Notes: generated by a model not told the origin, from the sequence alone. Shown: positions 1,658 to 24,095, counted from the stretch's first letter. The stretch is 32,000 bases of DNA from Pseudoalteromonas tetraodonis (GCF_002310835.1 NZ_CP011041.1:2400001-2432000), one strand, 5' to 3'. Made by a program: numbers and translations.

Positions 1658-1742
1658 TGGTGCGGATGGGGGGACTTGAACCCCCACGCCCGAAAGCACT
1701 ACCCCCTCAAGGTAGCGTGTCTACCAATTCCACCACATCCGC
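1658..1742 (-). tRNA. leuU: tRNA-Leu (anticodon GAG), class II with a long variable arm
   Basis: The reverse complement reads GCGGATG-TG-GTGGAATTGGTAGACAC-G-CTACC-TTGAGGG-GGTAG-TGCTTTCGGGCGT-GGGGG-TTCAAGT-CCCCC-CATCCGC-A-CCA. The acceptor, anticodon and T stems all pair. The D-arm and anticodon arm are nearly identical to E. coli leuU as I remember it. The position downstream of secG matches the E. coli secG-leuU operon. Confidence 0.92.
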
Positions 1743-8313: not shown

Positions 8314-8335
8314 TAAGGCCATTTAAAGGTAAAAC

Positions 8336-8363
8336 AAAAAAACCAGCCATTGCTGGTTTTTTT
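8336..8363. terminator. bidirectional rho-independent terminator between yhbY and the phosphatase gene
   Basis: CCAGC (8343-8347) pairs with GCTGG (8352-8356) around a 4-nt loop. The stem is extended by an A7/T7 run on either side. Confidence 0.75.
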
Positions 8364-8371
8364 ATGCCTGC

Positions 8372-8860
8372 TTAAAAACCCATTGTCAGCGTTTTAACTT
8401 CATAACTATTATTTTCTAGTTTACCCACTAAATAATAATGCCCGTACTGACTCTCATCCATACTTTCAATAGCTTGGTTACTCAATAATGAAGCCAACTG
8501 CGGTGTGGTATTACTATGCCCTATTACTACCACAACGCCATTTTGTGCTAATAATTGTTTTTTCAATGTCATTAGATCAGCAGCATCATAGGTAATAACT
8601 TTAATATTATAATACGCGGCTAATGGCGCTGCCGTGTTTAGGGTACGGTTATAGTTACTGCTGAATAACGTTATGTTTGGATAGGTGTTAACTAACGAAA
8701 CCAAGTGCTCAGCACGCGCTTGGCCTTGGGCAGTTAGAAATGGATTTTCCCCTGTTTGTTTTTCGCTATGTCGAAACAAGTAAACCTGTTCAGGGACAGA
8801 AAAGGCGGGTTGGCAAATAAGTAATAATGCTATTAACAATGTTTTTATGTGGGCGTTCAT
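8372..8860 (-). CDS. secreted histidine phosphatase family protein (PGAM/SixA-like fold)
   Basis: The signal peptide is MNAHIKTLLIALLLICQPAFS. The catalytic RHxE motif is in VYLFRHSEK and the second catalytic His is in VVVIGHSNT. The start overlaps the upstream gene's stop (TAATG at 8862-8858). Confidence 0.7.
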   Translation of the reverse strand: MNAHIKTLLIALLLICQPAFSVPEQVYLFRHSEKQTGENPFLTAQGQARAEHLVSLVNTYPNITLFSSNYNRTLNTAAPLAAYYNIKVITYDAADLMTLKKQLLAQNGVVVVIGHSNTTPQLASLLSNQAIESMDESQYGHYYLVGKLENNSYEVKTLTMGF

Positions 8861-10011
8861 TATTGCTTCTCTCGTTTATATGCTAATAGGCGATTTATAA
8901 ACTCAGTTGTAAGCTCATTTATGAGTCCAGTTTCTGCATTTAAAATTAAGCTAAAGCCAACATTTAAGTGTGGAAACACAACCAAATCACTGCGATAACC
9001 TTGCACCCAACCACTGTGGTAATAAAGCGTTTCATCATCATAATCATACACACGCCAGCCTAGCCCATAGTAGGCTTCGTTCATGTGCTCTCGCCATACT
9101 CGTCTGTAGCGTTCTTTTTTAGTATGTGTATAAGGACGCGTTTGCGTGGCCAATGCATCTAAGGATAATACCGATGGATATTGCCCTAATTGCGCATTTA
9201 ACCAAATAGCCATATCTGACGCACTAGCGTTTACCCCAGCTGCCGGAGCGACTTTATAATAATTCTTTTTCAAACGGGCACTGTACCAACGCTTTTTCCC
9301 ACGCACATGAGGGTGTGCGTAGTTACTATCTTGCACCATGGCATCGTAGCCTAAACTTGCATCGTTCATTTTTAGAGGGATAAAAAATGCGTCATTGAGC
9401 CACTGAGTATAAGTTTTGTTGGTGCTTTTTAAAATCACGTCATCAATTAAACTAAACATGACATTTTGATAGCCGTAACAGTCACCGGGTTCGCATATGG
9501 GTTTTACACTTAATAGCTTTTCTACAATATCGCTATACCCCATTCGCGATTCGATTAAATTATCGTATGCATTCGGTACTAGCCCACTAGAATGGCTTAA
9601 AATATGAAAAACCTTTAAATCATCTTTGTAGTCGGTTTGTTTAAATTCAGGAATGTAATGACTAACAGGAAAATACAAATTAAGTTGTTCTTCATTTGCA
9701 AGTTTTGCCGCTAACGACCCTGCAAACGTTTTAGATACTGAGGCCAAACGAAACCGAGTGTGTGGATTAATTTTTTGCCCACTGCGCACTTTGGTATGCC
9801 CCATAGTATGTATATAGTCACGCGCTTGTGCGTTGACGATGGAAAGCGCTCCGCCCGGAATCTTTTTTACTTTTAGTTTTTTTTCTACGTAGCGTCCATA
9901 ATTTTTAACAAAAGCTTCCCAGTCAGGATCTGTGCTTGCGCTTGCCTGTAAATGCGTCCCTAAAATACATAAAGCAAAAAAATAAAAGGGTAAGGAGTTA
10001 AAATACTTCAT
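8860..10011 (-). CDS. secreted serine hydrolase, beta-lactamase/transpeptidase (class C/PBP4*-like) fold
   Basis: The signal peptide is FFALCILGTHLQASA. The SxxK motif is SVSK (in RLASVSKTF). A YxN motif (YDN) and an HSG triad (YYHSGW), equivalent to KTG, are also present. Confidence 0.75.
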   Translation of the reverse strand: MKYFNSLPFYFFALCILGTHLQASASTDPDWEAFVKNYGRYVEKKLKVKKIPGGALSIVNAQARDYIHTMGHTKVRSGQKINPHTRFRLASVSKTFAGSLAAKLANEEQLNLYFPVSHYIPEFKQTDYKDDLKVFHILSHSSGLVPNAYDNLIESRMGYSDIVEKLLSVKPICEPGDCYGYQNVMFSLIDDVILKSTNKTYTQWLNDAFFIPLKMNDASLGYDAMVQDSNYAHPHVRGKKRWYSARLKKNYYKVAPAAGVNASASDMAIWLNAQLGQYPSVLSLDALATQTRPYTHTKKERYRRVWREHMNEAYYGLGWRVYDYDDETLYYHSGWVQGYRSDLVVFPHLNVGFSLILNAETGLINELTTEFINRLLAYKREKQ

Positions 10012-10126
10012 TCTTAGCTAATTTTTCTTTTTTAGTCATAATCAGCCTCTATAATATCATGAACTTTTGCTCGGACTAACGTACAATATGTTCGATTAAT
10101 GGCTTTTGAGTGGATGTAAAATATTT

Positions 10127-10936
10127 ATGCGTTTTTTAGTTGTATCACTTTTTATTGTATTAGCTTCAGGTTGTGCCGTAGTTAAGCAGCCTGCAGAACC
10201 TTTAGCAATGCCTGCAAAACCTTTGCTTAAGAGTCAAACTTACCAACTTAAATATGAAACCGAGCATGCTTCACCGAAAGTAAAATCGGTGCAATTACCT
10301 GCACATAACATTAAAAAAAATCAGACTGTCAGAGTGATCGTAGACCGTGCAAGTGTCACCGACACATTAGTATCTCAAATTAGCCAAGCACTTAACGATA
10401 AACAACTAAAAGTTACCACAACCGATAACAGTGATTACACGTTAGCTATCCATCAAGTTGACCTTGAGTTTATAGATGATGCTAAGTACATCCTAGCGCA
10501 GCCAGAAAAACCTTATTCATTGTTTTCAAAAGTAGCACAGCAATTCCCTTCTCAACAATGCGCAAATATACTGGCACAAGTTAGTATGCGCCTTACACAC
10601 AAAGCATCGGGAGATGTAGTTTGGTTTGCCAAATCATCAATAGATAGTGCAAGCTTTCACCGTGAGCCCCTAATCTATAGCTTTACTGAAGAAAAGAAGA
10701 TCACTAACGAGTTAGAAGTTGTTGCGTTTATTCATAAACATAATACCGAACAGGCTCGGCTTAAGCGTGCTGAACTTAAAAATGAAGTAACGGCCCCTGC
10801 TTATAAAACCATTACTAAACTGAGTCGTTTAACTAAATTAAATGGGCCATGTACACGTACTGAGATAAGCGCATTAACTCCCATGATGCAATTTTACTTA
10901 AGCAGTATACTTATCGATAAAATTAAGGTTCAGTAG
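10127..10936 (+). CDS. orphan lipoprotein (no family recognised)
   Basis: MRFLVVSLFIVLASGCAVV has a lipobox, LASG-C. The ATG at 10127 is preferred over the TTG at 10106 used by the track. I recognise no catalytic motifs. Confidence 0.6.
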   Translation: MRFLVVSLFIVLASGCAVVKQPAEPLAMPAKPLLKSQTYQLKYETEHASPKVKSVQLPAHNIKKNQTVRVIVDRASVTDTLVSQISQALNDKQLKVTTTDNSDYTLAIHQVDLEFIDDAKYILAQPEKPYSLFSKVAQQFPSQQCANILAQVSMRLTHKASGDVVWFAKSSIDSASFHREPLIYSFTEEKKITNELEVVAFIHKHNTEQARLKRAELKNEVTAPAYKTITKLSRLTKLNGPCTRTEISALTPMMQFYLSSILIDKIKVQ

Positions 10937-10951
10937 TTGCAGGACGACCGC

Positions 10952-10965
10952 TACATTTTTTTACA
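10952..10965 (+). promoter_or_regulatory. RstA-box-like direct repeat upstream of mipA paralogue A
   Basis: TACATTTTTTTACA matches the E. coli RstA box consensus TACATNTNGTTACA at every specified position except one (T for G at position 9). The TACA half-sites are 10 bp apart. The box abuts the -35 position of a TATACT -10-like hexamer at 10988-10993 and lies 64-77 nt upstream of the ATG at 11029. Confidence 0.4.
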
Positions 10966-11028
10966 GATTTAGCCAAGAGTTTGACAATATACTACCCTTT
11001 TAAGCAAACTCTAATTTAGGTTCCAAGG

Positions 11029-11886
11029 ATGAAGCATTTCCCACAAAGACATTTTTTCCGTTGTACAGCCTTATTGTTTGCGCTCATTTTTAGTGGCCAG
11101 AGCACAGCAAGCAATCGTTACTATGCCGATAACACATTGGAACCCACTACAGGGTTTGCCTGGGACTGGAGTGCAGGAGCTGGTTATTACATAGAAGATT
11201 CTTATTTGGTGGGGATGAATTCTTATGATGTTGGCGCCGAGTTAGATTTAAGCCTTGCGGTTTCTTACGATAATTTTTACCTTGATTTTGATCATAATCA
11301 ACTCAGCGGTGGACTTGTTTTAGGCTATAGCTTAATTAACAAATACGATTGGGGCCTTGATTTATTAGGTACTAATTCGCAAGCCGGGTTTGACGAACAA
11401 GGCTTAGGTATTTATAACGATGGCATTATTGAGCCACTGCGCGGTATCAAAAAACGTAACTATGATTTTGATACTGGCCTTCGATTAACACGTCGATTTG
11501 AAAACTCACAAATTTCCCTTGAATACTTACATGATATATCTGGTGCTCATAATGGCTGGGTGGCAAACGTATTTTTTAGTCATATTCAGCCTTGGCGTAA
11601 TTGGGAGTTTCGCTCTGGTATTGGCCTAAGTGCCTACTCTGCAGATTTTACAAACTATTATTTTGGTATTGATAGCGATGAAGCAAACGCAACTCGCCCT
11701 ATTTATCAAACCAATGCCAGTACCAGTATTATGTTTGAATTTCATGCTGAATATCCCATTAATCAAGATTGGGTCTTTTTAGCAGGCTGGTTAACTACTT
11801 GGTTTTCAAAAGAAATTGATGACAGCCCAATTATTTCCCAAGGATATCAACACAAAGCCAAGGTAGGCGTGCGTTATGTACTTTAG
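11029..11886 (+). CDS. MipA/OmpV-family outer-membrane beta-barrel protein (paralogue A)
   Basis: The signal peptide is CTALLFALIFSGQSTA. The sequence has an alternating beta-strand pattern. Family-typical motifs are shared with E. coli MipA and with paralogue B: LHDISG, NYYFGIDS (E. coli has NEYYYGVS) and IDDSPII (E. coli has TDSPMV). Confidence 0.7.
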   Translation: MKHFPQRHFFRCTALLFALIFSGQSTASNRYYADNTLEPTTGFAWDWSAGAGYYIEDSYLVGMNSYDVGAELDLSLAVSYDNFYLDFDHNQLSGGLVLGYSLINKYDWGLDLLGTNSQAGFDEQGLGIYNDGIIEPLRGIKKRNYDFDTGLRLTRRFENSQISLEYLHDISGAHNGWVANVFFSHIQPWRNWEFRSGIGLSAYSADFTNYYFGIDSDEANATRPIYQTNASTSIMFEFHAEYPINQDWVFLAGWLTTWFSKEIDDSPIISQGYQHKAKVGVRYVL

Positions 11887-12262
11887 ATTTTTTTACTGTT
11901 TATTGTTTAGTTATTCAGGCTCTTTGCTGGCAGCCCCAGTGCAAATACCCGCTCAATTGAGTGCAGTACCTGATACCTGTGTGGCCTTACGTGAAGGACG
12001 TCACTGTTACGCCGATGTTGTTTTGTCATGGCAGCAAGTAGAAGTGGGAAATTATTGTCTACGCGATGCCACCTCAAAGTACATTATGCAGTGCTGGCTT
12101 AAACAGCGACAAGGTTCGTTTAATTATGCCTTTGACTCAACGCAAAGTATTTCGTTTGAACTATTTGACAGTAATACATCACAAGTCATTGCCGTCACAG
12201 AAGTAAAATTACAATGGGTGTATCAAAATAGGCAAAAAAAGCGGCGTTGGCGGTTATTTTAG
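11876..12262 (+). CDS. small secreted four-cysteine protein (DUF3019-like), paralogue A
   Basis: The signal peptide is MYFRFFYCLLFSYSGSLLA-AP. The Cys pattern is C-x8-C-x16-C-x11-C-W. The C-terminal tail is basic and aromatic (RQKKRRWRLF). The gene overlaps the mipA-A stop by 11 nt. The DUF3019 family name is from memory and was not verified. Confidence 0.6.
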   Translation: MYFRFFYCLLFSYSGSLLAAPVQIPAQLSAVPDTCVALREGRHCYADVVLSWQQVEVGNYCLRDATSKYIMQCWLKQRQGSFNYAFDSTQSISFELFDSNTSQVIAVTEVKLQWVYQNRQKKRRWRLF

Positions 12263-12319
12263 TCACACACTATAAACATTATGATAGCTAAACATCATTT
12301 AGGTATGCGAAGAAAGCTT

Positions 12320-13024
12320 ATGGATAATTACGGTACTATTTTACTGGTTGAAGATGATATTTCTCTTGCACAATGGGTCACTGAGTATTTAACAGAGCAA
12401 GGCTATGTTGTACATGTATGTCATCGAGGTGATGAGGTAATAAGCCAAGTAAAACGTTTAAACCCACAACTTATTTTACTCGACATTATGCTGCCAGGGC
12501 TTGATGGTATTAGTGTATGTCGTGATCTACGTAGCTTTTATCATGCCCCAATTATAATGCTTACTGCCCGCGATGAAGAAATGGATGAAGTCATTGGGCT
12601 AGAAGTCGGTGCTACCGATTATATAATAAAACCAGTACGCCCTCGCGCATTGCTTGCACGCATTAAATCTGCCTTGCGCTACAGTAGCGACACGCCTAAA
12701 ACCGATGATCAAGCAAATATGATCAATATCGGTCAATTAAGTATTAATACCGAGTCACGCAACGTTACCCTTAACCAACAGGATGTGAACATTTCAAGCG
12801 CAGAGTATTTATTACTGCATTACTTAGCCAGTAATGCAGGACAAGTTGTTTCCCGCGATGCGGTGTTTAAAGCAACCAAAGGCAGGGAATATGATGGCTT
12901 AGATAGAAGCGTTGATGTGCTTATTTCTGCCTTGCGTAAAAAGTTTAATGATGACCCACAAAAACCAGAAAAAATTAAAACCATTTGGGGACGTGGTTAT
13001 TTGTTTGTGACTACAGCGTGGTAA
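12320..13024 (+). CDS. OmpR-family response regulator, RstA-like (paralogue A)
   Basis: The receiver domain has ILLVEDD, LILLDIMLPGLDG and IKP. The winged-helix region has REYDGLDRSVDVLISALRKKF and IKTIWGRGYLFVTTAW. These align closely with E. coli RstA (YDGLDRSVDVAISRLRKKL and RIKTVRNKGYLFAPHAW). The ATG at 12320 is preferred over the track start at 12281. Confidence 0.85.
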   Translation: MDNYGTILLVEDDISLAQWVTEYLTEQGYVVHVCHRGDEVISQVKRLNPQLILLDIMLPGLDGISVCRDLRSFYHAPIIMLTARDEEMDEVIGLEVGATDYIIKPVRPRALLARIKSALRYSSDTPKTDDQANMINIGQLSINTESRNVTLNQQDVNISSAEYLLLHYLASNAGQVVSRDAVFKATKGREYDGLDRSVDVLISALRKKFNDDPQKPEKIKTIWGRGYLFVTTAW

Positions 13025-13110
13025 GTTTTAATGCCTGAGTGCTTAAAATAATTAGCGCGATAGTAATAAAAGTCACTTCAGTACACCCAGCCTATTATGG
13101 AATAGCATCA

Positions 13111-14400
13111 ATGAAAAAGTTTTATATTTCACTACTAGGCAGTGCGCTGCTTTCAATTATTGTTTTAGGTTGGCTTATTGATGCATTTAGCCAACAAGCG
13201 CATGCGCCTTTGGATGAGTTTAGCGTTCAAAGCCAGATTATTGTCGGGTTAAGTAAACAGCTCACGGCGCTTAAACCCGATGCTCGCCCGCAACAAGTAA
13301 CAAAACTAGCCGCTGACTTTGACCTTATACTTAACTACAAATTAAATCAGTCGCTGGCACTGCCCTTAGCGCTATTAGATAAAATGCAAACCCAAGGCGG
13401 ATTAATACTCGAAGACGAGCAAGGCTTTTATATGCTCTACACAAATGATGAGTTAAGTCCTTATCATTTAACCATGCGTTTAGATAAACCCTATGAGGCC
13501 ACACAACGAAACGATATTATTTTAACGCTATTATTTTACACTGGCTTATGTGTTTTTATGGGTTTTATTATTACCCCTTTAGCAAAGCGCCTTACGGTGT
13601 TAAACGAAGCAGCAAAGCAATTTGCATCTGGTAATGTTAAAGCGCGTATTACCCCCTCTCGATTTACCTATATAAAAGATGTGGAACTGACCTTTAACCG
13701 TATGGCGAGTCAAATTGAAAAGCTAGTTGCTGAAAACAAGCTAATGGCCTCCAGCTTATCGCATGATATTAGAACTCCAATTGCTTGCTTACGCTTTGGT
13801 GTCGACGCCGCTCTTGATAGTCATGACGAGAGTAAAATAAAGCATTATTTAACTCGCATGGAAACCGACTTAGACCATATGGAGTCAATGCTAAAAAGCT
13901 ATTTAACGTTTGCTACTTTAGAGCAAAATGCGAATAAGCTTACTTACTCATCAGCAAACCTTAAACAATACCTAAGTGATATTGTATTGCAACTTGAGCC
14001 TAGAATAACCTCTCGCTCGCTTAATATTTCTTTAGAATGTGATGATCATACCGTTTATGCTGACTTACATTGGCTGGCAAGAGCAATCTCCAACTTAATT
14101 AATAATGCCTGCGACTTTGCAAATCACAGCATTCAAGTAACCGCTTCAGTACAAGAACGTTTTCTGGTGGTGAACATCGCCGACGACGGACCAGGCATTG
14201 CTCAAGAAAATAATCATAAAGTATTTAGCCCATTTTTTCGTGAACGCAGCCACCGTAATCGCAGTGATAATAGTTATGGCTTGGGGTTAGCAATCGTCGC
14301 CAAAGTTGCCGATTGGCATCATGGCACCGTAAAAGTGAGTAAAAGTGAACGGCTCTCAGGCGCCTGTTTCACATTAACCATCGCTCAGTTTGAACATTAA
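13111..14400 (+). CDS. sensor histidine kinase, RstB-like (paralogue A)
   Basis: Two TM helices flank a periplasmic segment of about 130 aa, followed by a HAMP domain. The H-box is SLSHDIRTP, the N-box is LINNACDFA, G1 is DDGPGI and G2 is GLGLAIV. The ATG at 13111 (MKKFYISLLGS) is preferred over the track start at 13039. Confidence 0.85.
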   Translation: MKKFYISLLGSALLSIIVLGWLIDAFSQQAHAPLDEFSVQSQIIVGLSKQLTALKPDARPQQVTKLAADFDLILNYKLNQSLALPLALLDKMQTQGGLILEDEQGFYMLYTNDELSPYHLTMRLDKPYEATQRNDIILTLLFYTGLCVFMGFIITPLAKRLTVLNEAAKQFASGNVKARITPSRFTYIKDVELTFNRMASQIEKLVAENKLMASSLSHDIRTPIACLRFGVDAALDSHDESKIKHYLTRMETDLDHMESMLKSYLTFATLEQNANKLTYSSANLKQYLSDIVLQLEPRITSRSLNISLECDDHTVYADLHWLARAISNLINNACDFANHSIQVTASVQERFLVVNIADDGPGIAQENNHKVFSPFFRERSHRNRSDNSYGLGLAIVAKVADWHHGTVKVSKSERLSGACFTLTIAQFEH

Positions 14401-19752: not shown

Positions 19753-20985
19753 CTAGTCTAAGCTAATAATAAACTTAACCCCACCCAGTGTAGAGTCTTC
19801 AATCGTGCACTGCCCTTTATGCCATGACACAATTTTACTCACTATCGCCAGTCCTAACCCAAACCCACCGGTTTTTTTATCACGACTTTTATCTAAGCGC
19901 GTAAACGGCTTAAATACTTTTTCGCGCTCAGAGAAGGCAATGCCGGGGCCATCATCTTCAATCACTAGCAGTAACTTTTCATCGGCAGTACTTAAACTAA
20001 TATGTACACTTTTCGAGGCATGTTTAAGTGCATTACTGATTAAGTTTTGCAGCACCCGCGACATAAAATGACTATCGCATAAGTAAATAAATTGAGTGGG
20101 GAGCGTTGTTGTTAGTTTAATACGGGTATCAAAGTTTACTTTTTCAATATTAGTTTTAATTAATGCAACGATATCGCAAAGGGCTAATTGTAGACTAGGT
20201 TGCTGTGTATCTAAACGGGCGTATTCCAACATTTCAGATACCAAGGACTCCAGTTCATGAATATCCATTTGCATGTCAGATAAATACTGCTGTGCTTTGG
20301 TATCGTGAGTTTTATCCTCAAGTATTGCAATAGCAAACTTCAACCGCGCTAATGGCGTTCTAAATTCATGAGATACAGAAGAGGTGAGCTCTTGCTGAGC
20401 ACTCAGTAAAAACTCAATACGTTGCTGCATTACTTGCAATGTATCGGTGATGGGTAAGAAGAATGACTTTGAGCTATCGCTTAATTGAAAGTCTTGCGAG
20501 CCACCCACTGCCTCGCATGCATGACTCAGCTTTGCAAAGTCTCGCCACAACAAAAAGCTCCACAAACCTATTGGTAAACTTATAATAAACAACACCAGTA
20601 AATACGGTAACACAGTCCCGGAGCTGCTGTGTTTAACACCTACAGGGCCTACTTGTAGCAATTGTGAATTATTTAGCGTTACATACCAAACGATACGCTG
20701 CTGTTTATCATATAAATAAAGGTAATGGTTTTGAAATAGTTGTGCTTGCTGTTCTGGTGGGAGCACCAGATCTTGCTGGGCAATGACTTGGCTATCAAAA
20801 TTATGTTTAAGCTGCTCAAGCCCATCTGGGGTTTGTGAAAGCAGCCATAAAGACTGCCCGAATTCGTCATCTAACAATACACTTTGCTGAGATTCATCAT
20901 AGGGCCAAAACTGCTCTATAACGCCACTAACAATAAACAAAGAGGCAATAATATACACGTAAAGGCTTATAAATAGCTTTCCCAT
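19753..20985 (-). CDS. sensor histidine kinase, RstB-like (paralogue B)
   Basis: The N-terminus MGKLFISLYVYIIASLFIV resembles E. coli RstB MKKLFIQFYLLLFV. The H-box is SVSHEFRTP. EMLEYARLD resembles RstB ELLTYARLD. The N-box is LISNALKHA, G1 is DDGPGI, and FTRLDKSRDKKTGGFGLGLAIV matches RstB closely. Confidence 0.87.
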   Translation of the reverse strand: MGKLFISLYVYIIASLFIVSGVIEQFWPYDESQQSVLLDDEFGQSLWLLSQTPDGLEQLKHNFDSQVIAQQDLVLPPEQQAQLFQNHYLYLYDKQQRIVWYVTLNNSQLLQVGPVGVKHSSSGTVLPYLLVLFIISLPIGLWSFLLWRDFAKLSHACEAVGGSQDFQLSDSSKSFFLPITDTLQVMQQRIEFLLSAQQELTSSVSHEFRTPLARLKFAIAILEDKTHDTKAQQYLSDMQMDIHELESLVSEMLEYARLDTQQPSLQLALCDIVALIKTNIEKVNFDTRIKLTTTLPTQFIYLCDSHFMSRVLQNLISNALKHASKSVHISLSTADEKLLLVIEDDGPGIAFSEREKVFKPFTRLDKSRDKKTGGFGLGLAIVSKIVSWHKGQCTIEDSTLGGVKFIISLD

Positions 20986-21011
20986 TAACCTAGCCTAACA
21001 CCTTGCATTTA

Positions 21012-21704
21012 TTACATATCCCACGCATCTGATACAAATAGATAGCCTTGCCCCCATACCGTTTTAATTCGATAGGGTTTATCACTGTTATCACCGAGCT
21101 TTTTACGAATGCGTGATACACGAACATCCACCGTGCGGTCTAACCCGTCGTACTCACGCCCTATCATATGTTGATGGACATGCTCTCGACTGAGCACTTC
21201 ACCAGCATTTGAAGCCAATAACCACAGCAATTCAAATTCATGAGAAGTCAGGACAATTTCAACACCGCTTAGCTTTACAATGCGGCTGGTTTTATCTATT
21301 GATAAGTCACCAAATTGAAGTTCTTCAATCGCTTTAACACTTGGCTGTCCACGGCGAAGCAATGCACTAATTCGAGCAAGAAGTACACGCGGCTCTGCCG
21401 GTTTTATAACGTAGTCGTCAGCCCCGAGTTCTAAGCCTATGACTTGATCGAAGTCTTCACCCTTTGCTGTTAGCATTAAGATAGGGAGAGTGTATTTGTC
21501 ACGTACTTGTCGACATACGCTAAAGCCATCTTTTCCTGGCAACATTACATCTAAAATGATCAAGTCGACGTGGTTTTCACTAAGATAAGGGAACACTTCG
21601 TCACCGCGTTCTAAAACGTCAACTTCTAAGCCATTATGCTCAAGATAGTCTTTGGTTAATTGTTGCAACCCTAAATCATCTTCAACAAGTAATATCTTTG
21701 GCAT
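21012..21704 (-). CDS. OmpR-family response regulator, RstA-like (paralogue B)
   Basis: MPKILLVEDD, LIILDVMLPGKDG, FELLWLLASNAGEVLSRE, REYDGLDRTVDVRVSRIRKKLGDNSDKPYRIKTVWGQGYLFVSDAW are very close to E. coli RstA. By manual alignment, roughly half of the receiver-domain residues are identical to paralogue A. Confidence 0.88.
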   Translation of the reverse strand: MPKILLVEDDLGLQQLTKDYLEHNGLEVDVLERGDEVFPYLSENHVDLIILDVMLPGKDGFSVCRQVRDKYTLPILMLTAKGEDFDQVIGLELGADDYVIKPAEPRVLLARISALLRRGQPSVKAIEELQFGDLSIDKTSRIVKLSGVEIVLTSHEFELLWLLASNAGEVLSREHVHQHMIGREYDGLDRTVDVRVSRIRKKLGDNSDKPYRIKTVWGQGYLFVSDAWDM

Positions 21705-21718
21705 TTACTGCTCCTAAA

Positions 21719-22096
21719 TTAAAAAAAGCTCCAAGGTGAGCGTAGCCGATGTTTTTTCTTAGCGTATGCGGTTTGCACTTCTATTTGCACACTCGCTAAC
21801 GATACACCTGTATGGGGATTAATCAGGGAGTATATGGTCTCCACCTGAACACGCGCTTTATAACTAAGTTGGCCTTTTTTGACACCTTGCCAGCATTGTA
21901 ATTGTGTATCTTGTTGGTATAAACATACATCGCTAGCGGCTGACAGTTGCCACTTAAATTTTAACTCAAGATCACAAAATTCTTGTTGTTCGGAAACCAC
22001 ACAGACTTTGGGTGATACGTTAAGTGAAGAGGCTTTTGCAACGCTAGCGTTGCTAAAAAATGAAGCTGTAAGCACAACCAACATAAAACACTTCAT
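21719..22096 (-). CDS. small secreted four-cysteine protein (DUF3019-like), paralogue B
   Basis: The signal peptide is MKCFMLVVLTASFFSNASVA. The Cys pattern is C-x8-C-x16-C-x9-C-W. The tail is basic and aromatic (KKKHRLRSPWSFF). The start lies 1 nt after the mipA-B stop. Confidence 0.6.
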   Translation of the reverse strand: MKCFMLVVLTASFFSNASVAKASSLNVSPKVCVVSEQQEFCDLELKFKWQLSAASDVCLYQQDTQLQCWQGVKKGQLSYKARVQVETIYSLINPHTGVSLASVQIEVQTAYAKKKHRLRSPWSFF

Positions 22097-22097
22097 A

Positions 22098-22937
22098 TTA
22101 AAATGTATGTTCGAATCCTATAAAGGCGGTCATTGAATAGTCATGTTCAAAAAGCGGGCTGCTATCCATTGCTGAATAATCATAATAGGCTAAATGAAAA
22201 CGAAGCGCGTTGACTCCATCTACAGGCCAACGGGCGTCGATTTTAGCATAAGGTTGCCAACTACTACCAACTTCTATTTCACCGTAAATAGATTCAGCGC
22301 TATTTAAACCATAAAAATAGTTATTTAGTTGGGCTGATTTGTAATTAACGCCTAACGTCGACTTTAACGTTAATTGCTTAAACTCATGGTGATATTGCCA
22401 TTGCAACGATCCCCTGTAGCCATTATAAACACTGTTTACATCATGCAATAATTGCACAGAAAATACTTGCTGCTGCTTTACAAAAAAATAGCTGATACCG
22501 GCATCAAGTGCGACTCGTCTTTTTTGTATATTATTTATATTTACTTGACGAGGTGAGTCAGTGTGTAGCGATTCTAATATCTCGTTCTCAGCGGTTGTTT
22601 TAAAGGGGAAAATATTTTGTGGATGCCAATCAATAAAAAAGCGTGACTCAGGGTTAATTTCTGACACAAAACTAACGTTATGTTGTTTGCTTTGTAAAAA
22701 AGAATAACCAAGACGGCCATTATCAAAAAACCAATTTTGACCATAATAAGCCACTTGCGGAATAACAACTAAGGGGATGTTATCTGCACCATACAGAGGA
22801 TTTGTGATCACCCCAGCACCAACACTCACACTAAGATTAAGCTCATCAGTGGATATATGTTGCTGCTTCTGAGCAATAGCATTAGTGCTTAATAGCACTA
22901 ATAACAGGCATGTGTTTATTCTCAGATGGAACCGCAT
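22098..22937 (-). CDS. MipA/OmpV-family outer-membrane beta-barrel protein (paralogue B)
   Basis: VSVGAGVITNPLYGADNIPLVVIPQVAYYGQNWFFDNGRLGYSF parallels E. coli MipA LGAGVGVVEHPYKDYDTDVYPVPVINYEGDNFWFRGLGGGYYL. NNYFYGL and MDSSPLF are also present, and the C-terminal residue is Phe. The ATG at 22937 gives a clean signal peptide (MRFHLRINTCLLLVLLSTNAIA). The track's GTG at 22997 adds 20 residues that do not resemble a signal peptide. Confidence 0.8.
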   Translation of the reverse strand: MRFHLRINTCLLLVLLSTNAIAQKQQHISTDELNLSVSVGAGVITNPLYGADNIPLVVIPQVAYYGQNWFFDNGRLGYSFLQSKQHNVSFVSEINPESRFFIDWHPQNIFPFKTTAENEILESLHTDSPRQVNINNIQKRRVALDAGISYFFVKQQQVFSVQLLHDVNSVYNGYRGSLQWQYHHEFKQLTLKSTLGVNYKSAQLNNYFYGLNSAESIYGEIEVGSSWQPYAKIDARWPVDGVNALRFHLAYYDYSAMDSSPLFEHDYSMTAFIGFEHTF

Positions 22938-23048
22938 GAAGTTAATCGCTAGTTTATAAAGTGGCTTTGACCCTATAGTAGCAAGTAGTATGAACACAAG
23001 CTCTAGAGGGTTACAATCATTAACAAATTTGATACAAACAGAACACGT

Positions 23049-24095
23049 TTACATATCGGCCGCTATTTCGACCCGATTACGACCATGGGTTTTAGCTAAA
23101 TAAAGTGCTCTATCTGCCTTTTCAACTAATAAACAGCTTTTACTAAAAGGCTCCATTAAAGCAATGCCGAAACTGGCTGAAATATTACGTTTATTATTAC
23201 TGTCTTCTTTTTTACGAATCGTCAATTTGGCAATGCTCAAACGAAGCTGATTACAAAATGCCATCGCATCATTAATGCTTTCAAAGTAACCCGTAATACA
23301 AAATTCTTCACCACCAAAACGATAAGCTCTGTATTGCTCTTGTACACTATTTTGCACTTTTTGAGCGACTAGCTTGAGTACCTCATCGCCTTTTTGATGG
23401 CCAAAATCGTCATTAAAACGTTTAAAATGATCAATATCGAACATAATCAACACCGCTAATTTACCGTGTTCATTTTGTGAAGAGGCGTTCAAACAAAACT
23501 CAACAATGTCTGTATCAAACTTACCGCGATTAAATAATCCGGTTAAGGAATCTTTATCAACCGCTTCTTGGGTCACGCTAAGCGCTTCTTTTAAATCTTT
23601 AATTTCGTTGTACGCTTGCGCTAATTTGGTTTGGAATCCACGGGCGTAATCTTGCATCGCAATTGATTCGTCAGTTAGGCGCTCAACGCAAGAAAGGATC
23701 TCATTAAATGAGTTAATACTAGAGAGCGTTTTTAATTCATTTTGTGAATCAACTAACGAGGTAGTAAAGCTTTTCGAATATTGAATGGAGTCACTAAGAT
23801 CAAACTGCATTTGCTCTACGGTGCCATGAAACCTTTCAGACATTTGTTGAAAAAATGCAAGCTCTTCGTCATTAATATGCTTATTAAAAATTTCTTGGGC
23901 GGTTTGAGCTGAACACGTATTGTGCAAAGAGATGACTTTATCAAGCTCTGTGTTTAGTTGTGGGTTGTCGCCCTGTACATAACAGTACCAAATAGCATAA
24001 TTTATTGGCGTTACAGGCATTTTGTATTTAACCATCAACGGAATGGCTTTTTTTAAACACTGGGCAGAATGAGCAAGTGAAACCGTATTATCCAT
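23049..24095 (-). CDS. GGDEF diguanylate cyclase with an N-terminal helical/coiled-coil region
   Basis: The GGDEF domain contains DSLTGLFNRGKFD, DIDHFKRFNDDFGH and an intact active site RFGGEEF. There is no RxxD I-site at the usual position upstream of GGEEF (the residues are QEQY). No TM segment is evident. Confidence 0.85.
   Translation of the reverse strand: MDNTVSLAHSAQCLKKAIPLMVKYKMPVTPINYAIWYCYVQGDNPQLNTELDKVISLHNTCSAQTAQEIFNKHINDEELAFFQQMSERFHGTVEQMQFDLSDSIQYSKSFTTSLVDSQNELKTLSSINSFNEILSCVERLTDESIAMQDYARGFQTKLAQAYNEIKDLKEALSVTQEAVDKDSLTGLFNRGKFDTDIVEFCLNASSQNEHGKLAVLIMFDIDHFKRFNDDFGHQKGDEVLKLVAQKVQNSVQEQYRAYRFGGEEFCITGYFESINDAMAFCNQLRLSIAKLTIRKKEDSNNKRNISASFGIALMEPFSKSCLLVEKADRALYLAKTHGRNRVEIAADM

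Follow-up and report, generated by a model that had tools for sequence, protein, structure and literature searches.

A serine hydrolase and histidine phosphatase operon divergent from a MipA and RstAB-like gene cluster in Pseudoalteromonas tetraodonis, compared with known MipA/two-component loci

MipA-family outer-membrane barrels, two-component systems of the RstAB/CarRS type, and beta-lactamase-fold genes recur together in polymyxin and envelope-stress responses (PMC10936184, PMC12012098, PMC9426598, PMC12064563). MipB of Pseudomonas aeruginosa is a lipoprotein of ~600 amino acids, co-transcribed with mipA, that has lost SxxK and has degenerate YxN/KTG motifs, and its two C-terminal eight-stranded barrels (about 220 amino acids) are the modelled MipA interface; linkage of mipB to mipA is confined to Pseudomonas, most species have a two-component system next to mipA, and in Achromobacter a 'shorter serine hydrolase' adjoins mipA (PMC10936184). 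V. cholerae's carRS-ompV-virK operon is a polymyxin-responsive system with a MipA/OmpV barrel (PMC12012098); RstAB of Vibrio controls dgkA-eptA and colistin resistance (PMC12064563); and the regulon of BesRS, which senses envelope disturbance in B. thailandensis, includes a beta-lactamase gene as well as one of the MipA/OmpV family (PMC9426598). In Pseudomonas, Vibrio, and Burkholderia, MipA barrels beside two-component systems are emerging as sensors of polymyxin and outer-membrane damage. Here we describe a locus of Pseudoalteromonas tetraodonis (GCF_002310835.1, NZ_CP011041.1:2400001-2432000; this stretch of 32,000 nucleotides is called the window, and positions are counted from its first letter) in which genes for a serine hydrolase and a histidine phosphatase stand back to back with a MipA and RstAB-like gene cluster (cassette A).

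On the minus strand, a PF00144 serine hydrolase gene (383 amino acids; 8860-10011) runs into a His_Phos_1 (PF00300) histidine phosphatase gene (162 amino acids; 8372-8860), the stop codon of the former and the start codon of the latter overlapping in a TAATG read directly at 8858..8862; an identical 1-nt overlap of the two genes is present in the P. tunicata locus (L001). A terminator scan placed a hairpin terminator (8334..8365, minus strand; 14-pair stem, then a T run) 3' of the phosphatase gene and before the convergent yhbY. Because of the overlapping stop and start codons and the hairpin at 8365-8334, the hydrolase and phosphatase genes are assigned, from sequence, to one two-gene operon. 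This operon is divergent from a five-gene cluster for a lipoprotein, MipA, a DUF3019 protein, an RstA-like regulator, and an RstB-like kinase, with a gap of 115 bp; this length presumes that the lipoprotein starts at ATG 10127 (MRFLVVSLFIVLASG/C lipobox), the mechanical list of open reading frames (ORFs) having started it at TTG 10106. The reading that we favour, tentatively and a little short of an even balance, is that the operon would supply two periplasmic enzymes, with the hydrolase coupled by transcription to the adjacent sensor as an envelope-repair output and not as a MipB-type co-sensor.

The hydrolase matches the PF00144 Beta-lactamase model (E 1.9e-55; 188.8 bits, cut-off 27) over residues 41-361 and ends 22 residues past this domain. 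Its motif 1 is S91-V-S-K94 (9741-9730), motif 2 is Y181-Q182-N183 (9471-9463), and motif 3 is H332-S-G334 (9018-9010), all on the minus strand; the register of all three was taken from AmpC, AmpH, and Flp alignments, in which motif 2 coincides with the YAN motif of AmpC and the YSN motif of both AmpH and Flp. Across 31 orthologues (54-80% identity), S91-x-x-K94, Y181-x-N183, and H332-S-G334 do not vary, nor do C173 and C178. An earlier note on this DNA had given SVSK, YDN, and HSG as the catalytic motifs of the hydrolase at 8860-10011; three motifs are indeed kept, and SVSK and HSG were placed correctly, yet its YDN (Y149-D-N151), also invariant among orthologues, lies outside the canonical motif 2 position. 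The gene order described in the earlier note stands, with the TAATG overlap at 8862-8858, the 115-bp divergent gap (given the ATG 10127 start), and the lipoprotein, mipA-A, 4-Cys, RstA-like, and RstB-like genes (lipobox, PF06629, PF11456, and best NCBIfam matches, respectively, agreeing with these names), and so does its signal-peptide-bearing phosphatase with RHSE and GHS motifs.

A search of solved structures with the orthologue profile ranked S. aureus Flp (1e-29) first, followed by P. abyssi Pab87 (2e-29), AmpC enzymes (~1e-23), ClbP, and the Streptomyces R61 DD-peptidase (3e-19); identity to the nearest relatives Flp, Pab87, AmpH, and AmpC is about 22-25%. The HSG third motif is common to the hydrolase and Flp; the R61 DD-peptidase has HTG, and class C beta-lactamases have KTG at this place. 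E. coli AmpH is colinear with the hydrolase over the full length (22% identity over 369 amino acids), the alignment beginning directly after the predicted hydrolase cleavage site. The class C beta-lactamase model (bla_class_C equivalog) is the best NCBIfam match at 89.1 bits (cut-off 415), and the AmpH model PRK10662 gives 79 bits (equivalog cut-off 266). A class C beta-lactamase identity was rejected for the score far below cut-off and HSG in place of KTG, an AmpH identity for the score below the equivalog cut-off and the 22% identity. The hydrolase has an orthologue group of its own, composed of Pseudoalteromonas and Flocculibacter only. Its N-terminus MKYFNSLPFYFFALCILGTHLQASAS has an AXA-type site and no L-[AS]-[GA]-C box; the phosphatase also has an N-terminal hydrophobic signal-like segment and an AXA-type site (all by inspection), and both operon products look exported. 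Judged by its motifs, the hydrolase is predicted to be a catalytically intact enzyme of the MEROPS S12 type; as it has none of the published hallmarks of MipB, it would not be a functional homologue of that protein.

The phosphatase scores 26 bits on PF00300 His_Phos_1 (gathering score 21.7) and has the motifs R30-H31-S-E33 (RHSE), R72, and G114-H115-S116-N-T-T-P (GHS). Invariant among 38 aligned relatives are R30, H31, E33, K34, R72, G114-H-S-N-T, and P120 (full-length positions; the family alignment itself is numbered from residue 2, the query being without its initial Met); an N-terminal signal-like segment, scored by inspection, is present in 38/38 of them, and some have lipoboxes. The AlphaFold2 model (predicted local distance difference test, pLDDT, 91.7) has a histidine-phosphatase fold, which Foldseek assigns with probability 1.0 to the branch-1 proteins PGAM5, PFKFB, SixA, and MutT1-C; the best length-normalised fits are compact SixA-like domains, with template modelling (TM) scores of 0.70-0.72 for the C-terminal domains of MutT1 and Rv2985 and of ~0.6 for SixA and alr0221. 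In hhalign comparisons, the phosphatase family aligned with E. coli Ais at 95.5% probability (E 1.6e-8, 92 columns) and with E. coli SixA at 74% (E 2.7e-5). The NCBIfam Ais/PmrG models NF011945 and NF052369 gave no match to the phosphatase even at E <= 10, E. coli Ais scoring 392 and 146 bits on them as a control; NCBI names relatives 'SixA phosphatase family protein'. Motifs and model place the protein in the branch-1 histidine phosphatase superfamily, and its kinship to Ais/PmrG and SixA is at superfamily level only. At that level an Ais analogy is reasonable, because both are small, exported, branch-1 proteins sharing LFRH(A/S)E and SSN..RT; the Ais/PmrG precedent cited in the earlier note holds as far as the hhalign kinship goes and not as membership of the NCBIfam Ais/PmrG families, and the structural comparison with Ais and SixA that it proposed leads to the compact SixA-like domains and likewise stays at superfamily level.

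The ratio of nonsynonymous to synonymous substitution rates (dN/dS) against L008 is 0.21 for the phosphatase and 0.033 for the hydrolase; the phosphatase is under purifying selection, ~6 times weaker than that on the hydrolase. Exported mini histidine phosphatases of the type 'RH(A/S)EK ... GHSNTTP' make up a large family, spread over marine gammaproteobacteria and further phyla. When metagenomes were scanned with the signature of this family, at least 589 relatives were returned, and a literature search on exported SixA-like phosphatases surfaced no characterised member among the papers listed; by these signs the family would be a widespread but uncharacterised, secreted subfamily.

One genome per species was scanned with the DUF3019 protein, which gave 54 loci, all Pseudoalteromonas; the hydrolase, phosphatase, and cluster genes were scored by tblastn over these and other fetched loci. 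The hydrolase is back to back with the lipoprotein-MipA-DUF3019-regulator-kinase-SNF cluster in 53/53 cassette-A loci of the genome scan, and with the sensor cluster in 55/55 when the metagenomic loci L062 and L063 are added. The phosphatase is present in 29 of 53 loci, absent without remnant in 23, and unscorable in 1; in loci that lack it, yhbY and the hydrolase gene are just 59-306 bp apart. Conservation of the pairing in related genomes, the lack of which the earlier note would have counted as a refutation, is complete for the hydrolase beside the cluster and limited to 29 of 52 scorable loci for the phosphatase. The closest genome of the collection (metagenome-assembled genome M30B23, L009) is among those without the phosphatase gene, window positions 8380-8872 being missing. 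On a neighbour-joining tree of the hydrolase, parsimony requires at least 7 changes in phosphatase presence or absence; repeated loss is the simplest reading, because the basal lineages, P. tunicata and L051, have the gene. On this distribution, the phosphatase appears as a passenger that is dispensable and has been lost repeatedly, an optional addition to the hydrolase gene in the genus. The metagenomic locus L062 (L062:3922-8191) has lost MipA and DUF3019, and its lipoprotein-regulator-kinase-SNF genes are still back to back with the hydrolase, which suggests that the stable core beside the hydrolase is the lipoprotein plus the two-component system, not MipA.

Genes flanking the missing phosphatase in L009 have 96-100% protein identity to the window. 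DNA identity is 84-89% in the hydrolase-lipoprotein-mipA segment and 93-99% on the regulator-kinase-SNF side, a pattern that hints at recombination or at faster evolution of envelope-exposed genes.

The control region from which the hydrolase gene and the lipoprotein operon diverge (10012..10126, 115 bp) has a length of 103-126 bp, mostly 111-117 bp, in the main Pseudoalteromonas clade. A footprint of 44 sequences outlines a nearly invariant 37-bp core (10051..10087) made of two blocks, ATAATATCATGAACTTTT (10051-10068) and GACTAACGTACAAT (10074-10087); the bases around both blocks are variable, and in the flanking genes, comparisons between the more distant of these species show saturated synonymous sites. 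In the deep clades L053-L059, L055, and L063, the blocks are in identical 23-nt register, near the hydrolase start and at variable distance from the lipoprotein start. No further copy of the core blocks was found in the window, the upstream region of cassette B included, and since the blocks are unique to one site there, no regulon was deduced from the window. A putative sigma-70 promoter of the lipoprotein operon (-35-like ATGAAC, 17-bp spacer, -10 TACAAT) may interleave with an opposite-strand TATTAT ~40 bp upstream of the hydrolase start, so that two promoters would overlap back to back; such a layout would allow co-control or mutual exclusion and proves neither. No response-regulator site was definable in the control region. 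A 13-codon upstream ORF in the hydrolase leader was discarded as not conserved.

Cassette A begins with an outer-membrane-type lipoprotein gene (10127..10936, plus strand; lipobox LASG/C) of a genus-restricted family (28 matching clusters among 1.8 billion representatives), for which there were no Pfam or PDB sequence matches. Its AlphaFold2 model (pLDDT 91.7), built from library representatives, resembles the outer-membrane lipoproteins PelC, LptE, CsgG, and TraT (Foldseek probability 1.0 and E-values as low as 5e-5, with partial TM scores) and suggests a barrel-associated partner for MipA. A 'split MipB', with the lipoprotein standing for the C-terminal barrels and the hydrolase for the beta-lactamase domain, was ruled out because the model is PelC/LptE/CsgG/TraT-like; it has an alpha/beta fold, and its matches do not include 4WHI, the barrel of Rv0907 type. 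More distant proteins of 370-430 amino acids (P0323-P0334) match only the C-terminal half of the lipoprotein and have no convincing Pfam domain, one weak sub-threshold match being GNA1162-like. The MipA/OmpV-family outer-membrane barrel follows (11029..11886, plus; PF06629 E 1.9e-34), with an E-value of 1.7e-22 on the OmpV model, below its cut-off. The spacer between the two genes (10937-11028) is not of constant length among close relatives (an alignment with L009 has 157 gap columns). It has a promoter-like, candidate internal site at 10960-10988, so that co-transcription of mipA and the lipoprotein gene may not be strict.

The remaining genes of the cluster, all on the plus strand, encode a DUF3019 protein with four conserved Cys and a signal-like N-terminus (11876..12262; PF11456 E 4.3e-28), an RstA-like response regulator (12281-13024; NCBIfam RstA 242 bits, cut-off 330), and an RstB-like histidine kinase (13039-14400; NCBIfam RstB 199 bits, cut-off 478), RstA and RstB being the best NCBIfam matches, both below their equivalog cut-offs. 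A literature search found no papers on DUF3019. The kinase ORF was listed from GTG 13039; because residue 27 is the first to align with the RstB model, the true start is probably an internal Met (MKKFYISLLG...) ~24 codons downstream (segment concerned, 13039-13110). PF06629, Response_reg/Trans_reg_C, and HisKA/HATPase_c domains thus occur in one co-directional cluster, an arrangement kept in 54 loci, and the cluster has the MipA-plus-two-component arrangement of a barrel gene adjoining an OmpR-family regulator and a histidine kinase. The window as a whole is a Pseudoalteromonas chromosome segment with the order folP-ftsH-rlmE-yhbY ... SNF; all named close homologues are from Pseudoalteromonas, and a marine metagenome contig (L067) has 99-100% protein identity to it across the locus. 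An Rfam scan of the window found a tRNA (1661-1742, minus strand) alone, and no mobile or resistance context is present around the hydrolase locus. Literature searches found no published work on the Pseudoalteromonas locus or on its induction by polymyxin or cationic peptides.

The window has a second, paralogous MipA-DUF3019-regulator-kinase cluster (cassette B; 19753-22997, minus strand), preceded by GGDEF diguanylate cyclase (23049-24095) and LysR genes; most Pseudoalteromonas loci conserve it as well, at a distance of ~6-8 kb from cassette A. Identity between the cassettes is 21% for DUF3019 and about 50% for the regulator. The genome-collection scan and a word-indexed protein search gave the DUF3019 cluster in Pseudoalteromonas only. 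Relatives of the phosphatase in Colwellia, in Shewanella, and on two further gammaproteobacterial contigs lie among unrelated genes; MipA, the lipoprotein, and DUF3019 occur in none of the 77 non-Pseudoalteromonas metagenome loci that were kept, and MipA or cassette-type two-component neighbours in 0/81 non-genus phosphatase relatives (4 + 77 loci). A convergent PF00144-like gene lies ~1.2 kb off in 3/77. The commonest phosphatase neighbours elsewhere (metagenome loci within L067-L146) are sthA, a small lipoprotein gene, prfA, and carbonic anhydrase; as clade-specific housekeeping genes (sthA, prfA, carbonic anhydrase, fabR-like TetR), these neighbours gave no clue to phosphatase function.

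In the mechanism that we propose, the hydrolase would be acylated on Ser91, Lys94 and Tyr181 serving as base system, and might trim peptidoglycan stems that end in D-Ala, or else some related envelope amide or ester of D-aminoacyl type; in the phosphatase, His31 would be the nucleophile, and Arg30, Arg72, and His115 would complete the site; transcription would couple the hydrolase to the lipoprotein-MipA-DUF3019-RstAB-like sensor, leading to envelope repair. Co-regulation of hydrolase and sensor is plausible, and compatible with the data because of the genus-wide link between them and the conserved control region. Several observations weigh against this reading. The substrate of either enzyme is not derivable from sequence; the phosphatase is missing from 23 of the 52 scorable loci; the Flocculibacter hydrolase orthologue (59% identity) is on its own, with gshB on one side and rsmE on the other; cassette B has no hydrolase, phosphatase, or lipoprotein neighbour in the window. 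The 37-bp core is unrecognisable in P. tunicata, L051, and L062, and ordinary core promoter elements, with no shared regulator, could account for it; an E. coli-type RstA box TACATNTNGTTACA, considered in the intergenic region and rejected, agrees at ~9/12 specified positions (hand count), overlaps TACAAT, and is not conserved in its 3' half. The whole region rlmE-yhbY ... SNF-acetyltransferase-Spo0M is equally syntenic in the genus, so plain vertical inheritance could explain the adjacency, and since rlmE, yhbY, and SNF are as syntenic as the hydrolase, adjacency alone is no proof of a functional unit.

The same observations are what one would expect if the two genes were a housekeeping or scavenging periplasmic operon with its own promoter, unrelated to the MipA/two-component cluster and kept beside it by descent in a region not rearranged in the genus: every flanking gene is just as syntenic, outside the genus the cluster accompanies neither gene, cassette B does without such a partner, the phosphatase is freely lost, and its family is found elsewhere beside sthA, prfA, and carbonic anhydrase. 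This is a substantial possibility, if not one that we would expect to prevail, given the tight intergenic length and nearly invariant 37-bp core across species with saturated synonymous sites, the L062 locus, which lost MipA and DUF3019 and kept the hydrolase-lipoprotein-two-component arrangement, and the serine-hydrolase genes that adjoin mipA independently in Pseudomonas and Achromobacter (PMC10936184). At the other extreme, the locus could be a genus-wide, self-contained surveillance-and-repair unit for the envelope, in which a lipoprotein/MipA/DUF3019 outer-membrane complex would signal to the RstAB-like system, which would directly control, via the overlapping bidirectional promoter, an active penicillin-binding-protein (PBP)-type hydrolase and, in some lineages, also an exported Ais-like phosphatase removing phosphates from lipopolysaccharide (LPS) or lipid A. 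We regard this as unlikely; if true, it would make the locus the enzymatic counterpart of the non-catalytic MipB arrangement. The self-contained unit for sensing damage and remodelling the envelope that the earlier note put forward is not established.

Two further explanations concern the hydrolase itself. As in P. aeruginosa, a beta-lactamase-fold gene adjoins mipA and a two-component system, and the hydrolase could accordingly bind the MipA barrel and help to signal polymyxin or outer-membrane damage to the kinase; the protein has no lipobox, its SxxK/YxN/HxG motifs are intact and invariant, its 383 amino acids leave out the MipA-interface barrels, its gene is divergent and outside the mipA operon, and the 'MipB slot' upstream of mipA is taken by the unrelated PelC/LptE-like lipoprotein, all of which makes a MipB-like co-sensor very improbable. 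The analogy with MipB drawn in the earlier note fails on these same features. A weak beta-lactamase or family-VIII-type esterase acting on exogenous compounds, for resistance or scavenging, is also rather improbable; it might be envelope-induced like PenL under BesRS, the phosphatase freeing phosphate from the same substrate class. Such a role would suit the class C beta-lactamase model as best NCBIfam match, the AmpC structures among the nearest solved relatives, and the BesRS regulon precedent (PMC9426598), and sits poorly with 89 bits against a class C cut-off of 415, HSG and not KTG as motif 3, the peptidase-type proteins Flp and Pab87 as top profile matches, and the lack of mobile or resistance context.

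With a PBP-fold enzyme of intact motifs kept back to back with such a sensor in a marine genus, and with an unstudied lipoprotein and a DUF3019 partner, the locus gives simple genetic access to the question whether these sensors have the trimming of peptidoglycan or envelope as a direct output, and the natural presence and absence of the phosphatase within one genus provides ready-made comparisons for substrate finding. If the genes are merely neighbours by descent, the locus is ordinary.

The locus has in common with ParRS-MipB-MipA that genes for a MipA barrel, for a two-component system of OmpR type, and for a beta-lactamase-fold protein occur in one neighbourhood, all for envelope proteins. 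The comparison with MipB (PA1797 type) rests on features published in PMC10936184; the locus differs from the MipB one in that the hydrolase is an apparently soluble, exported protein of 383 amino acids, without lipobox or C-terminal barrels, with intact motifs, and encoded divergently from the mipA operon, and from ParRS-MipBA in that a PelC/LptE-like lipoprotein and DUF3019 accompany MipA in Pseudoalteromonas. With the Vibrio carRS and RstAB loci it shares, among marine gammaproteobacteria, the clustering of an RstAB/CarRS-type system with a MipA/OmpV barrel or envelope-remodelling genes; the Vibrio loci are without PF00144 hydrolase, histidine phosphatase, DUF3019, and lipoprotein, and their outputs are almEFG, vexAB, and eptA. 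The BesRS regulon differs in that PenL is a class A beta-lactamase and that the genes are not a divergent pair.

Among S12/PF00144 enzymes of the DD-peptidase type (AmpH, Flp/FmtA, Pab87, R61), the fold and three catalytic motifs are shared, with HSG as in Flp; the window hydrolase differs as a separate orthologue group, ~22% identical to AmpH and below the AmpH and class C cut-offs. Ais/PmrG is a PmrA-regulated LPS core heptose(II)-phosphate phosphatase, and SixA is a cytoplasmic protein that acts on phosphohistidine proteins. The window phosphatase is like Ais a small exported branch-1 histidine phosphatase, with LFRH(A/S)E and SSN..RT..(S/T)A in common; it differs in a shorter mature form, in GHSNTTP versus THNHC of Ais, and in not being beside arn/pmr genes. 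It is like SixA in its compactness (~160 amino acids; Foldseek TM about 0.6) and differs in the signal-like or lipobox N-termini of its family and in a profile similarity weaker than that to Ais. With its intact divergent hydrolase and a phosphatase away from arn/pmr genes, the architecture differs from both the MipB and the Ais/PmrG precedents, as the earlier note had stated, and by its gene content the Pseudoalteromonas locus fits the known MipA/two-component theme with a different list of parts, i.e., a divergent, apparently intact PBP-type enzyme, a PelC/LptE-like lipoprotein, DUF3019, and sometimes a predicted exported mini phosphatase.

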